A stretch of 32,000 nt of DNA, taken from the NCBI RefSeq assembly GCF_000007185.1, contig NC_003551.1, positions 1,620,001-1,652,000 of the forward strand, given 5' to 3'. The DNA is from Methanopyrus kandleri AV19. GTDB taxonomy: Archaea; JAADCQ01; Methanopyri; Methanopyrales; Methanopyraceae. A model generated the notes under the pieces. That model was given only the letters and a program-made list of their open reading frames with translations, did not search any database and was not told where the DNA came from. Shown here in pieces: positions 3,475-21,513 of the stretch; the first letter of the stretch is position 1; every line of letters begins with the position of its first letter. The position numbers and the translations under genes were made by a program.

Positions 3475-3630
3475 TTACGGCTTCAGCTTGCTACGCCTCC
3501 AGTGCCTACGCTTCGGGTTGTCGATGACGCGTCCACCCGTTTTAGCCACAACCCACGGTGGGACGCGACGGTTCTGCTTGATCGCCTTGGCCATACGGAG
3601 TTTCTTACCCAGTGGTTTCACACGGGCCAA
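3475..3630 (-). CDS. rpl39e: 50S ribosomal protein L39e (51 aa; below ORF-track size cutoff)
   Basis: My own translation of the minus strand gives (TTG)[50 protein letters not shown]. This matches the eL39 pattern ([19 protein letters not shown]...KT......P.RRHWRR.KL). An in-frame GTG at 3621 is an alternative start. Confidence 0.85.
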
Positions 3631-9821: not shown

Positions 9822-10002
9822 CTCGGAACCCCCAGCCGCTGCCCGACGGGTAACGTTAAAACACTCTCCCTCCGGGGATCGCGTGGGGCTCGGAGGGGAG
9901 ATGCTCCAGTACGTGATCCTGGAGTACGTCCTCAGCACCGTCATTTCATTAGTCATCGAAAAGTATGTGGTGGACCCAACGACCCGGCGCTAAGTCCGTC
10001 AG

Positions 10003-13479: not shown

Positions 13480-13727
13480 CTGCGCACCTCGGCGAGAAAA
13501 TCGAAAAATATATCTCCAAACTCCCAAGCGTGTTGAACGAATGCAAACCCAGAGACCGTGCCGGAGAGCGTCTGCTAGACCTGGCGAGCAGGTACTTCTA
13601 CGATGCTCGGTACTTCCTCGACAGGGGCGAGATGGTGGAGGCTTTCACATGTCTGTCCTACGCGTGGGCCCTTCTGAGAGCCGGGGCCGAAGTAGGCGTG
13701 CTGGACGTCCCGGAGGATGAAGTGTGA
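13413..13727 (+). CDS. Small archaeal conserved protein, DUF357-like; start uncertain
   Basis: The C-terminal 75 aa (EKIEKYISKL...ASRYFYDARYFLDRGEMVEAFTCLSYAWALLRAGAEVGVLDV) match my recollection of the DUF357 pattern. The only canonical start (ATG 13413) overlaps argB by 67 nt. Confidence 0.6.
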   Translation: MPRGRDHEPGRVARGEGNHREVAAHLGEKIEKYISKLPSVLNECKPRDRAGERLLDLASRYFYDARYFLDRGEMVEAFTCLSYAWALLRAGAEVGVLDVPEDEV

Positions 13728-14437
13728 CCCGCCCGCAGGTGATGATTGTCATCCCGGCTGACCCTCCCGGGCATGATGGGGACCACCCAGCTGAAGGGGG
13801 CGTCGTCGTAAAATTGGTCCGACCCGTGTCGGTAGGGAAGCACGGCGGTGTATCTGTAGAAGTCCTACACCCGTCGGATCTTCCCCCACAGCTGACTTCA
13901 CTCTGTAAGATTAAGATCAACGGAGCTAGGGTCATCTCCCGTAGGAGCAATATCGTAGCCTTCCGAGGTAGGCCATCCCTGGAACCGCTCAACGACCTCG
14001 ACGGTTTCATGTCGATCGCCGCCCGGGAGAGCGAGGTCGTGATGGTCGGTGATCCGTACCTGCGGGTGCTGGCGGTCGAAGAGGGCGAACGGATCGTCGT
14101 AAATACGGATCGTCTCCTCGCCTGTCTCGACTTTGAGACCATAGAACTGAAGAACGACGAGATTACCGTGGTCGAATGCGTAGGACCAGACATCGTGGTT
14201 CTCGCGTGTTCGAGCCCCGTAGTAGCGTCGCTGAAGTTGGAAGGGGACACCGCACACGTACAGGCGGGGAGCATCCTGTGCTGGTGGAACATCCACACGG
14301 AGAACGTCGGTGACTTCCTCAGGCTCACGGGTCAAGGCCACGTGATGCTGTCCATCACCAAGAAACCGGACGCTACCGAGAAAGGCGCCAGTACCGAAAA
14401 AACCACCGCACCGAGGAAAGTCAGCTCTTGGATTTAG
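13724..14437 (+). CDS. Hypothetical beta-rich protein with weak AIM24/DUF124-like pattern
   Basis: 237 aa. GTGTGA start/stop coupling with the upstream gene. My hand count over 13898-14341 gives GC3 of about 74%, versus about 62% for the antisense ORF. Segments GERIVVNTDRLLACLDFETIE and FLRLTGQGHVMLS resemble AIM24-type repeats. The function call is weak. Confidence 0.6.
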   Translation: MTRPQVMIVIPADPPGHDGDHPAEGGVVVKLVRPVSVGKHGGVSVEVLHPSDLPPQLTSLCKIKINGARVISRRSNIVAFRGRPSLEPLNDLDGFMSIAARESEVVMVGDPYLRVLAVEEGERIVVNTDRLLACLDFETIELKNDEITVVECVGPDIVVLACSSPVVASLKLEGDTAHVQAGSILCWWNIHTENVGDFLRLTGQGHVMLSITKKPDATEKGASTEKTTAPRKVSSWI

Positions 14438-14479
14438 CGGCCCCCGATGGACCCAATCCGCAATAATGTTACGATCCTT

Positions 14480-14488
14480 GTAACGATT
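14480..14488 (-). other. Conserved tRNA 3'-trailer motif AATCGTTAC (+8 after CCA of tRNA-Gly)
   Basis: The exact 9-mer is shared with the trailers of tRNA-Phe and tRNA-Pro at the same offset. Here it can pair as GTTAC/GTAAC. Confidence 0.6.
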
Positions 14489-14495
14489 TGAGGTT

Positions 14496-14571
14496 TGGTG
14501 CGGCCGCCGGGATTTGAACCCGGGCCACGGGCTCGGCAGGCCCGCGTCCTACCAGACTAGACTGCGGCCGC
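14496..14571 (-). tRNA. tRNA-Gly (GCC), 76 nt, CCA encoded, C at position 8
   Basis: Hand-folded cloverleaf: acceptor GCGGCCG/CGGCCGC, D stem GUCU/GGAC, anticodon stem CGGGC/GCCCG, loop CUGCCGA, T arm CCGGG-UUCAAAU-CCCGG, ACCA. Confidence 0.95.
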
Positions 14572-16138: not shown

Positions 16139-16165
16139 TCCATCGGACACCCGCTTCCGTGGGAG

Positions 16166-16462
16166 GTGGTATGAGCGTTTACGTACTACTAGTCACAGGT
16201 ACTCATGTTGAAATAGCACTATATATGCATTGTTTACGCATTATTATGTGATAACAGTAATACAATCGTTATGGCCTCAAAGCAGTTACAAAATCGGCTA
16301 AATCAGGGTCTTGGATGTGGCGGTAGGTTAACCAGTACGAAGCCTGTCCTAGCGGTGAACGATCGTATTACTGGTACCTGACTACCGTATGTGTATAATG
16401 CGTGGATAGTACAGTTCCTACACGAGCGTCCGTGGACTACCGTACGTAAGTGCTCATACCAC
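16166..16462. repeat. AT-rich element bounded by a 21-nt imperfect inverted repeat (16166-16186 / 16442-16462)
   Basis: GTGGTATGAGCgtTTACGTAC versus GTACGTAAgtGCTCATACCAC is complementary at 19 of 21 positions. The interior is about 42% GC with a 60-nt core near 28% (hand count). It lies between two convergent stop codons. Confidence 0.7.
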
Positions 16463-16476
16463 TTGAAGACCTGACG

Positions 16477-17235
16477 TCACCCGCGCTGGAGTTTCCAGCG
16501 TTGGAACTCTAACCCCACGTCGGGTACCTCGTGTTTCTCGTCGAGGGATTTCCCGCGGTGGTGGATCACCTTCCTCAGGTAGCTCGAGTAGTGCGCGGGC
16601 CAGCCTCCTAGGGTCCTCACGGCGAAGGATTCCAACCTGTCGGGTAGTTCTTCGAGTAGATCCCGGATTCTTGGTGACTCGGAGGGTCTGGCGTCGAATG
16701 CTAGCGCGAGCCCGCGGGCGAGTACCCATCGGGCCTTCTTGTATGGCAAGTCCGAGACCTCGGTCAGGAGGGTCTTGAGCACCGAGCGGAGGTTGCGCAT
16801 GAGGTGTCGCGCGAGCTCCAGAACCTCTCTACGATCTAAAGAGACTAACCATTCAACAAAGGAAACGCTCTCGTTCTCGGGTTTGCCCAGGTAGAGCGTA
16901 CGACCGTGCTTGTGTCGGGGGTCACGCCTCCACCTCGCCACGTAGTACGGGCCGCACGTACTACCGTTGACGGTCCTGTAGGTTACCTCCAGGCTCGGCT
17001 TCTTCCTCCTACGGTGAACTTCCCTCAGGACTCGGAGCGCGCGGATCCGCTCGACCGGGTTGTAGGGTATGGGTGCGTGCGATCTAACCAACCCCGGCCC
17101 ACGATCCCGAGTACTGCCCCTAAGTTGTATGGAGGCATGGAGAGAACGGCACCCCGGGATATAAAGGTTGTCACCAGACCCTCCGAGCTGGACGAGCTCG
17201 GTGACTCGTACCATACAACTCCTGTGGGAAGGCAA
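16477..17235 (-). CDS. Hypothetical protein with GPYY...YLGK motif (resembles DUF6788-type proteins of mobile elements); start uncertain
   Basis: EVTYRTVNGSTCGPYYVARWRRDPRHKHGRTLYLGKPE resembles the HGPYWY..R..GK....YLGK motif. GC3 is lower than in neighbouring genes. An internal TATA-like TTTATATC (17165-17158) suggests the real start may be TTG 17091 (204 aa). Confidence 0.6.
   Translation of the reverse strand: MPSHRSCMVRVTELVQLGGSGDNLYIPGCRSLHASIQLRGSTRDRGPGLVRSHAPIPYNPVERIRALRVLREVHRRRKKPSLEVTYRTVNGSTCGPYYVARWRRDPRHKHGRTLYLGKPENESVSFVEWLVSLDRREVLELARHLMRNLRSVLKTLLTEVSDLPYKKARWVLARGLALAFDARPSESPRIRDLLEELPDRLESFAVRTLGGWPAHYSSYLRKVIHHRGKSLDEKHEVPDVGLEFQRWKLQRG
17158..17165 (-). promoter_or_regulatory. 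TATA box-like TTTATATC inside the 5' part of ORF 16477..17235
   Basis: Near-consensus archaeal TATA on the minus strand. The surrounding codons are GC3-poor. The next in-frame start (TTG 17091) is about 70 nt downstream. Confidence 0.35.
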
Positions 17236-18960: not shown

Positions 18961-19063
18961 CGCGGGGGCCTCACGGTGAGGTGTCGGGAGGGTTTAATGG
19001 GAGGACGATCGCGGTTTGCCGACGTCCCCTTCTGTAATCCGGAAACCGTTCGTTTTGAAATTC

Positions 19064-19072
19064 GTAACGATT
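19064..19072 (-). other. Conserved tRNA 3'-trailer motif AATCGTTAC (+8 after CCA of tRNA-Phe)
   Basis: It is part of a 15-nt block, AGAATCGTTACGAAT, identical to the tRNA-Pro trailer. Confidence 0.6.
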
Positions 19073-19079
19073 CTGGGCT

Positions 19080-19188
19080 TGGTGCCGCGGCCGGGATTTG
19101 AACCCGGGCCCACCGGATGGCGGCGATCCCGCGGAATACCCGCGGGATCTCTTCAGTCCGGCGCTCTCCCAGGCTGAGCTGCCGCGGC
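19080..19188 (-). tRNA. tRNA-Phe (GAA), 109 nt, with a 32-nt intron at or next to position 37/38; CCA encoded; C at position 8
   Basis: Acceptor GCCGCGG/CCGCGGC, D arm GCUC-AGCCUGGGA-GAGC, anticodon stem CCGGA/UCCGG. The stem strands are separated by CUGAAG[AGAUCCCGCGGGUAUUCCGCGGGAUCGCCGCC]A. T arm CCCGG-GUUCAAAU-CCGGG, ACCA. Confidence 0.9.
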
Positions 19189-20531: not shown

Positions 20532-20609
20532 GGGGCCGTGGGGTAGCCTGGTCTATCCTTCCGGCTTTGGGGGCCGGAGACCCCGGTTCAAATCCGGGCG
20601 GCCCCACCA
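20532..20609 (+). tRNA. tRNA-Pro (UGG), 78 nt, CCA encoded, U at position 8
   Basis: Acceptor GGGGCCG/CGGCCCC, anticodon stem CCGGC/GCCGG, loop UUUGGGG, T arm CCCGG-UUCAAAU-CCGGG, ACCA. Confidence 0.95.
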
Positions 20610-20617
20610 ATTCTGAG

Positions 20618-20626
20618 AATCGTTAC
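20618..20626 (+). other. Conserved tRNA 3'-trailer motif AATCGTTAC (+9 after CCA of tRNA-Pro), forming the 5' arm of an 8-bp hairpin
   Basis: AATCGTTA (20618-20625) pairs with TAACGATT (20635-20642) across a 9-nt loop and is followed by TTT. Confidence 0.6.
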
Positions 20627-20673
20627 GAATATTATAACGATTTGGGATTTAAGAATTGATTGAGCGAACGAGG

Positions 20674-21513
20674 TTACCGACGTAGCTCGGGTAGCCGCAG
20701 TATCCTCGTGGCTCTGGTGAGATCCTTGATCCTCCACTCGGACTCCCCTAGTACACTCCGCTGAGCTTCACGCCAGCGGTACGTCAGCCTCGCCCTCCAG
20801 GAGTCCATGCGCTGCGCGTCCGTGTGGTACTCGTCGTCCTCGCTCATGAGTATCGGACGCTCGGGTTCCTCTGTCGGATCTACACCGGCCCATTCCGCCA
20901 GCTCTCGGAGTGCTTCCAGTCCTCGCTCGGTAATGGGGAACTCGATGGTTTCCTCCGGTTTCTCGACCCTCAGGCGGGGCTCGTCCGGCGTTTCTTCGAG
21001 CCAGGGCTCGCCGGGACACACATCCGCCCAGCGCATCCTCACTAGGTCCATCACGCTGATTCCCGATTCGGCGATGATGCGGAACGGCGCCCACCAGGAT
21101 GCGTCCTTGTTTTCTTTTGCCCACTCCTCGATCAAATCTACCAGCTCTAAAATTTCACGAGCGTCCTGCTCGGTCATCTCGGGCGATGCAGGCGATCCGT
21201 ACGCCTTCACGGTCAGGACGAGCAGTGGGTCCCTACCAACGGCTCGTAGGGCTTTAGTGAGCGCGTACCAGCACAGTCTACCCATTTCATGGTCCAACTC
21301 CATGTTACGGACTGACTCCACCAGCAAGTTACGGAGTTCGCGTGCTACCTCTAAAATCTCCTCGTCTGGGGCCTTCTCGAGCCACTCTTCCGGCTCCTCG
21401 TCCTCCAGGATCCTCCGGAGGAACTCATCCAGCCTCCGTAAAGCGAAGCGGTATGAGTGCCGGGTGTTTTCGTTGCGTACGTCCAGCAGATCCGCTAGCT
21501 TCTCCAAGGCCAC
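20674..21513 (-). CDS. Tyrosine-recombinase (integrase/Xer)-like protein, degenerate and C-terminally short
   Basis: NENTRHSYRFALRRLDEFL is a SAM-like N-domain. IIAESGISVMDLVRMRWADV aligns with the box I pattern TGxRxxEL..L.W.D, but Arg is replaced by Ser. IKDLTRATRIL aligns with HDLRHT. No downstream Tyr lies before the stop. GTG start. The gene sits 65 nt from tRNA-Pro. Confidence 0.5.
   Translation of the reverse strand: MALEKLADLLDVRNENTRHSYRFALRRLDEFLRRILEDEEPEEWLEKAPDEEILEVARELRNLLVESVRNMELDHEMGRLCWYALTKALRAVGRDPLLVLTVKAYGSPASPEMTEQDAREILELVDLIEEWAKENKDASWWAPFRIIAESGISVMDLVRMRWADVCPGEPWLEETPDEPRLRVEKPEETIEFPITERGLEALRELAEWAGVDPTEEPERPILMSEDDEYHTDAQRMDSWRARLTYRWREAQRSVLGESEWRIKDLTRATRILRLPELRR

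Follow-up and report, generated by a model that had tools for sequence, protein, structure and literature searches.

A conserved palindrome marks the 3′ ends of tRNA, 5S rRNA and some protein-coding transcription units in Methanopyri

Results

Three tRNA genes share a 9-mer just beyond their CCA ends

What follows the tRNA genes of Methanopyrus kandleri? The window analyzed here, a stretch of 32,000 nucleotides from strain AV19, contains three tRNA genes, distributed over both strands and each encoding its own CCA end (other loci are cited by L number):

14496 to 14571, minus strand: tRNA-Gly(GCC), encoded CCA (ARAGORN; Rfam 64.4 bits)
19080 to 19188, minus strand: tRNA-Phe(GAA), with a 32-nt intron and encoded CCA (Rfam 52.1 bits; ARAGORN with introns allowed)
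20532 to 20609, plus strand: tRNA-Pro(TGG), encoded CCA (ARAGORN; Rfam RF00005, 54.4 bits)

The tRNA-Phe gene (19080-19188, minus strand) is missed by ARAGORN at its default settings and was recovered only by Rfam or by ARAGORN with introns enabled. Its 32-nt intron occupies the canonical position, and the orthologous tRNA-Phe genes of L004 and L150 are intronless. Between tRNA-Phe and tRNA-Pro lies an AcnX gene, the product of which is 95% identical to a Methanopyrus protein.

A first-pass annotation had reported an identical 9-mer behind all three tRNA genes, and this observation holds exactly: AATCGTTAC is present at 14480-88 (minus strand), 19064-72 (minus strand), and 20618-26 (plus strand), separated from the encoded CCA by 7 nt in Gly, 7 nt in Phe, and 8 nt in Pro. 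The stretch AGAATCGTTACGAAT said to be common to the Phe and Pro trailers is likewise confirmed, and chance is indeed an unlikely cause, the placement of AATCGTTAC in the trailers far exceeding random expectation. When up to one mismatch is allowed, the 9-mer shows no overall enrichment in the window, occurring nine times against 4.3 expected. A fourth exact copy, at 5764-72, falls within a 398-aa ORF, is not accompanied by a partner arm of the kind described below, and is a chance copy.

The 9-mer is one arm of a 25-nt palindrome

Alignment of the trailers of orthologous and non-orthologous tRNAs reveals that AATCGTTAC forms the arm nearest the gene in an imperfect palindrome of 25 nt with the consensus AATCGTTAC-GAnnnTC-(G/A)TAACGAT(T/A). 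The left arm occupies positions 1-9 and the right arm, (G/A)TAACGAT(T/A), positions 17-25; the 7-nt center is mostly GAnnnTC, where two extra base pairs are possible. The three copies in the window are:

14464 to 14488, minus strand: Gly element, AATCGTTAC-AAGGATC-GTAACATTA, beginning 7 nt past CCA
19048 to 19072, minus strand: Phe element, AATCGTTAC-GAATTTC-AAAACGAAC, beginning 7 nt past CCA, with a weak right arm (5 pairs)
20618 to 20642, plus strand: Pro element, AATCGTTAC-GAATATT-ATAACGATT, with the left arm at 20618-26 and the right arm at 20634-42, beginning 8 nt past CCA

The first-pass annotation had pictured the 9-mer as entering ad hoc hairpins in a different register behind each gene. 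The feature is instead a palindrome in a single register: all three copies have a 7-nt gap between 9-nt arms, and only the positions of the mismatches differ. Eight of nine arm positions pair in Pro, and five to six in Phe and Gly. Searching the 32-kb window for TCGTTA-N9-TAACGA with up to two mismatches returns the three trailers and one chance-like site, with 0.67 expected. The one-mismatch copy of the 9-mer at 16264-72, to which the annotation had also drawn attention, is not an element; it is in AT-rich intergenic DNA and lacks a partner arm in the standard 7-nt register. The AT-rich stretch that contains it (16143-16477; GC of the surrounding kb about 0.56) lies upstream of a gene of the DUF1678 family (16477-17235, minus strand), which is largely confined to Methanopyrus.

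Six positions of the palindrome (T3, G5, T6, T7, A20, and C21) show no variation among 50 distinct copies. The GC content of the element is ~33% and that of its flanks ~65%, so that each copy forms an AT-rich island. The left, transcript-proximal arm is better conserved than the right, and this is also the case in orthologs that were not selected by motif. The Pro element is kept in its orthologs in L002, L164, L004, and L005, with G.U and compensatory changes, and the Gly element recurs in L002 and L164 with a different loop.

The motif was reported in 2017

The first-pass annotation knew of no described element with this sequence. The motif had in fact been published: applying statistical motif discovery to AV19, Tong et al. 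detected CGTTA(N)9TAACG some 10 bp beyond "about half" of the tRNA genes, regarded it as peculiar to M. kandleri, and surmised that an enzyme of 3′ maturation might target it (BMC Genomics 2017, 18:27; PMC5217627). According to their Table S2, AV19 has 34 exact copies of the pair CGTTA-N9-TAACG, and 97% of these fall in intergenic DNA (PMC5217627). Theirs was the only report found in a literature search on the sequence itself and on tRNase Z or termination in Methanopyrus. The window copies correspond to this motif in genome, position, and sequence: they stand in AV19 and begin 7, 7, and 8 nt after CCA, and the Pro element contains the exact pentamer pair, with one right-pentamer mismatch each in Phe (AAACG) and Gly (TAACA).

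Every tRNA gene examined is followed by the element

In ~310 kb from AV19-like strains, KOL6, and four to five Methanopyri MAG lineages, the element stands behind 51 of 51 tRNA 3′ ends, which represent at least 15 amino-acid types. Each of these copies matches the arm consensus at 12 or more of 18 positions, a score reached by 0.4% of random sites, and a 7-nt spacer precedes 33 of the 51. The set includes tRNAs that were reached through neighboring proteins and hence without selection for the motif (L002, L004, L005, L164, which is KOL6, L165, and L168), as well as the tRNA-Arg of L138. All seven AV19-like tRNAs examined have the element: Gly, Phe, and Pro in the window, and four from other loci (Ala, Ile, Trp, and another Pro). 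Tandem tRNA genes in L139 each possess a separate BRE/TATA promoter and a separate element. The first-pass annotation had remarked that its reading would fall if other tRNA genes lacked the motif; among the 51, none does.

A scan of a genome collection holding one genome per species, with the pattern T-loop, CCA, 6-10 nt, and the 9-mer, returned 32 stretches, 29 of them from four Methanopyri species, one of which contributed 17 tRNAs. The right arm is absent from the three bacterial matches and from the one match of a viral-contig scan. No AV19, KOL6, or SNP6 locus was returned, even though the KOL6 tRNA-Gly trailer (L164) matches the pattern exactly; the lack of matches from these strains is therefore uninformative, their genomes apparently being absent or masked in the collection. 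The genome and metagenome collection scans and the null distribution exclude chance or local duplication as the origin of the pattern.

Some Methanopyrus tRNA genes do not encode CCA. In the tRNA-Phe genes of KOL6 (L164 9675-9695) and GCA_054027855.1 (L002 9675-9695) the discriminator is followed by CCC or CTC, with a degenerate element 3 nt on, and in the AV19-like L168 (about 9830-9858) tRNA-Pro is followed by CCCCCC.

tRNA genes are classic integration sites, and the element could accordingly be imagined as an integration target or as a mobile palindrome of the REP or MITE kind. It is a short conserved palindrome that recurs in intergenic DNA, as the counts of Tong et al. show (PMC5217627). 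Yet the copies recur at orthologous sites after a given tRNA in lineages with AcnX identity of 72-95%, their spacing to CCA is fixed, their number is low, and the common sequence starts beyond CCA, excluding the tRNA body. REP and MITE elements are recognized by many dispersed, variable copies together with a transposase; here the copies are orthologous, and AV19 has only ~34 exact pentamer pairs. An att site would comprise a duplicated repeat that includes the 3′ part of the tRNA, together with an integrase, and here even the spacers differ between tRNAs. Neither integrase nor transposase appears in the Pfam-annotated gene tables of L002-L006, L159, L164, L165, and L168. The shared recombination target that the first-pass annotation had listed among possible roles thus finds no support, given the exclusion of the tRNA body and the orthology of copies across lineages with AcnX identity as low as 72%, and we consider a mobile or recombination-related origin highly improbable.

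Copies follow 5S rRNA and a set of protein-coding genes

Is the element confined to tRNA genes? Two of the window elements also face the 3′ end of a protein gene on the opposite strand:

13724 to 14437, plus strand: convergent protein ORF, 3′ end toward the Gly element (from the ORF list; ortholog in L002, 6252-6860, plus strand, and in L164)
20674 to 21513, minus strand: convergent 279-aa protein gene, 3′ end toward the Pro element (identical protein on contig DUJS01000005.1 of MAG GCA_013329715.1 and on several other assemblies)

The Gly element lies 26 nt beyond the stop codon of the former, and 31 nt separate the end of the Pro element from the stop codon of the latter. In L133, the 5S rRNA gene is followed by AATCGTTAT-GAAAGTC-GTAACGATG. 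More generally, a context-free scan of metagenomes for the palindrome yielded 46 Methanopyri-like copies, of which 30 follow tRNA genes, two follow 5S rRNA genes, and 14 lie elsewhere. At 11 of these 14, an ORF of 100 codons or more ends 13-38 nt upstream, versus 28% of control positions, and such ORF ends are found on both strands at 5 of the 14, versus 2.7% of controls. Specific examples, each 20-28 nt beyond a stop codon, are found after atpA in L005, after a 456-aa ORF in L144 and its AV19 ortholog in L168, and at two L165 sites, of which one separates convergent genes. The motif, which the first-pass annotation had suggested seeking at non-tRNA loci, is therefore present after 5S rRNA and protein genes, and these same copies refute the idea of a tRNA-specific signal.

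Further sequences were noted at the ends of protein genes. A CCCTCACGCC-like motif recurs between stop codon and palindrome (L191 about 6370, L213 about 2600, L200/L202, L192, L218, L204), and a similar TAACGCCCTCAC is present in the 3′ UTR of AV19 MK0314 listed by Su et al. The H/ACA sRNA Nr5 of the same authors maps to L168 11435-11609 (plus strand) and L144 5466-5640 (minus strand); in both lineages a palindromic element lies upstream of it, after the preceding protein gene. The RNA-seq 3′ end of Nr5 in AV19 passes through a solitary AATCGTTAC, and the homolog in the JAMOPY lineage ends in a T5 run. Nr5 was considered as an instance of a mapped end within an element and set aside, since the AV19-like L168 has at this position a solitary AATCGTTAC half-site from which the right arm is absent.

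tRNA trailers lack oligo-T tracts

TTTT occurs within 60 nt of CCA in one of the 51 tRNA trailers, and TTTTT within about 90 nt in one of the 51. The trailers thus do not display the archaeal oligo-T terminator, a run of at least four to five T on the non-template strand just past the gene. Nor is there a bacterial-type terminator (GC-rich stem followed by a T/U tract) between 14300 and 20800 of the window, the flanks of the elements being free of T runs. Mapped 3′ ends of AV19 mRNAs and sRNAs, on the other hand, are annotated as '3′ poly-T' (Su et al. 2013, Table S1; PMC3695527). The RNA-seq data of the same study include tRNA intermediates with 5′ leaders and with introns, while none is listed with a 3′ extension, and its authors place 3′ processing first in tRNA maturation (PMC3695527).

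Several known signals were tried and rejected. In the window and the 32 loci, Rfam matches only tRNA, 5S, and LSU rRNA models, which rules out that the trailer harbors a C/D box or another described RNA. The upstream regions contain no complement that could pair with the trailer in a BHB-like processing stem involving the 5′ leader. A solitary CRISPR repeat is excluded because AV19 crRNAs begin with the unrelated AATGAAAC. A minihelix mimicking an RNase P substrate (hairpin followed by ACC) is incompatible with a 3′ flank that is inconsistent among copies, and extension of the stem by flanking GGG/CCC is not general.

Sequences resembling the right arm were observed in two other contexts. An abundant small RNA of AV19 (10,600 reads; 892365, minus strand, between MK0932 and MK0933) begins with CTAACGATG (Su et al. 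2013, Table S1). If a left arm lies just upstream, the 5′ end of this RNA would arise inside a palindrome; a metagenome scan for the 892365 RNA starting with CTAACGATG gave no match. Second, one MAG lineage has three tRNA promoters whose BRE position, immediately before TATA, reads GTAACGATT or GAAACGATT, the same 9-mer as the right arm of the element: L142 about 2461-2469 (Val), L158 about 1944-1952 (Cys), and L146 about 3499-3507 (Gln). From base composition, ~0.08 chance matches are expected in 38 upstream regions. As tRNA promoters in general read cGTAAnnnTTTAtATA, the arm of the element resembles the BRE.

Covariation is weak and the sequence itself is conserved

Is the palindrome read as an RNA hairpin or as duplex DNA? 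Compensatory changes do occur: C4:G22 is replaced by T4:A22 in the Ala and Ile elements of L165, and A1:T25 by C1:G25 in L005 and by T1:A25 in the Pro elements of L005 and L147. Where the left arm is paired (positions 4, 8, and 9), all substitutions are C to T or A to G, so that the sense RNA can still form a wobble pair; variants at positions 1-2, at the outer edge, depart from this rule. The copy at the radical-SAM gene of L165 has two G.U pairs, which form on the sense strand only. Over all copies the covariation score is 0.084 versus 0.064 in shuffles (reached by 1 of 500), most stem columns barely varying, and 79.3% of cells are paired versus 78.2% in shuffles (reached by 8 of 500). In the tRNA-linked copies of the unbiased scan, pair 9-17 is C/A in 18 cases, T/G in 7, and C/G in 5; since a C.A mismatch predominates, pairing in the sense RNA is not clearly selected. 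The right arm is frequently mismatched without compensation.

We judge the covariation to be weak. Nor are the hairpins predicted to withstand the growth temperature: M. kandleri grows at 84-110 °C, and free RNA hairpins of the element have no predicted stability at 95 °C; for the three window copies, unfolding is predicted already at 70 °C. The strong conservation of the sequence itself points to a factor that reads sequence, whether in an RNA hairpin or at a DNA site.

One explanation of these data is that the element is purely a signal for RNA processing or stability, through which transcription runs. An endonuclease or RNA-binding protein would recognize the precursor hairpin, or its single-stranded left arm, and set the cut that precedes trimming to CCA; on mRNAs, the palindrome would be a 3′ stabilizer akin to the 3′ inverted repeats of chloroplasts. 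A processing role was also the proposal of Tong et al. (PMC5217627). It is in keeping with the tight spacing to CCA (7 nt in 33 of 51), the stronger conservation of the transcript-proximal arm, the wobble-preserving substitutions, the sense-strand G.U pairs at the L165 radical-SAM gene, and the abundant AV19 RNA with its right-arm-like start (Su et al. Table S1). The predicted instability of the hairpins at growth temperature argues against it, as does the excess of the C9.A17 mismatch over the U.G wobble. Transcription running through the element would moreover have no obvious end point, T-tracts being absent nearby, and a bidirectional terminator accounts more economically for palindromes between convergent genes. 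We regard processing as the sole function as possible but unlikely.

Alternatively, the element could be a duplex-DNA site for a dimeric protein with a role other than 3′-end formation: an insulator or roadblock, for example, that shields heavily transcribed genes for stable RNAs against convergent transcription or conflicts with replication, or a site for a regulator of stable-RNA synthesis. Conservation beyond what pairing demands, including the invariant positions listed above, the clear half-site symmetry ATCGTTAY, the AT-rich island with its thermodynamically weak hairpins, and the presence of GTAACGATT or GAAACGATT at the BRE position of three tRNA promoters (L142, L158, L146) would all suit such a site. 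Compensatory double changes would be unexpected, however, if a protein read the half-sites separately, the two arms are unequally conserved, the protein itself is hypothetical, and a location behind rather than before genes is unusual for a regulator. A DNA site of this kind seems to us quite improbable.

Discussion

Our analysis establishes that a palindrome marks the 3′ ends of transcription units in Methanopyri, namely those of the tRNA genes examined, of 5S rRNA, and of a minority of protein genes. The element is real, non-random, and biologically meaningful. As an observation, the motif has been known since 2017. It is the same palindromic element in the same genome and at the same place behind tRNA genes, with the difference that we find a recognizable copy after every tRNA examined, in at least four further Methanopyri lineages, and at the ends of 5S rRNA and protein genes, in trailers without T-tracts. 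What is new is therefore its presence behind each of these tRNAs, its conservation across Methanopyri lineages with AcnX proteins of no more than 72-83% identity, the 5S and protein-gene copies, and the placement between convergent genes; so too are the absence of T-tracts and the thermodynamic problem that growth temperature poses for a free hairpin.

How does the element compare with known 3′-end signals? It occupies the same place just beyond the transcription unit as the archaeal oligo-T terminators, at which M. kandleri mRNA ends, but it has no T-run, the conserved feature being a specific palindrome. Like bacterial Rho-independent terminators, it is a hairpin-forming inverted repeat that soon follows gene ends and is two-sided at convergent pairs; in contrast to them, its stem is AT-rich rather than GC-rich, the U-tract is absent, and its sequence is conserved genome-wide and across lineages, which is not the case for intrinsic terminators. 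REP/BIME elements and the inverted DNA-uptake sequences that act as terminators in Neisseria and Haemophilus are likewise sequence-conserved short palindromes repeated at gene 3′ ends. They exist in hundreds to thousands of copies at no fixed distance to an RNA end, whereas the present element numbers in the tens, is found chiefly at stable-RNA genes, and varies in placement by about one nucleotide. The metazoan histone mRNA stem-loop is also a sequence-conserved hairpin that sets the 3′ end for a particular class of transcripts, with a dedicated binding protein, SLBP, and a nuclease of the CPSF73 type, homologs of which are present in archaea. Whereas the mature histone mRNA ends after its hairpin, the mature tRNA ends 7 nt short of the element, and the corresponding factor is putative.

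In our view the element is most probably a terminator or a processing signal confined to its lineage, and we are confident, if not certain, that it serves to form transcript 3′ ends in one of these ways or in both, the two being compatible with each other. Of the suggestions made in the first-pass annotation, termination or 3′ processing is accordingly the best-supported one, once its restriction to tRNA is dropped. Formation of 3′ ends is favored because T-tracts and bacterial-type terminators are absent while mRNAs end at poly-T, because each tandem tRNA gene has its own promoter and element, because no 3′-extended tRNA intermediates are listed, and because a palindrome suits both sides of convergent genes.

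We propose that the main function of the element is transcription termination, to which we assign a probability of roughly 0.55. A bidirectional terminator would take over from the usual archaeal oligo-T signal; a lineage-specific factor would recognize the palindrome, whether as a hairpin in the nascent RNA or in the double-stranded DNA; and the short trailer left after termination would be trimmed back to CCA. No requirement of archaeal RNA polymerase for hairpins is known, which weighs against termination, and the tight 7-nt spacing to CCA, which a terminator does not need, suits a processing ruler no less. More tentatively still, Methanopyri may use the palindrome at stable-RNA genes and for some mRNAs as a bidirectional terminator that is specific in sequence and depends on a factor, its own putative recognition protein. 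If so, this mode of termination would differ both from intrinsic termination at oligo-T and from the general termination mediated by FttA/aCPSF1 or Eta.

Finally, termination in archaea is thought to depend on oligo-T tracts and general factors. In this hyperthermophile, a whole class of genes, comprising all tRNAs examined and 5S rRNA, is without T-tracts and has in their place a precisely positioned, conserved palindrome; the motif was published in 2017, and its scope and its link to the missing T-tracts had previously gone unremarked. If the element is a dedicated terminator or processing signal with a factor of its own, it would represent a new and experimentally tractable mechanism of RNA 3′-end formation at ~100 °C, and it would also account for the 3′ ends of CCA-encoding tRNAs in the Methanopyri lineage.
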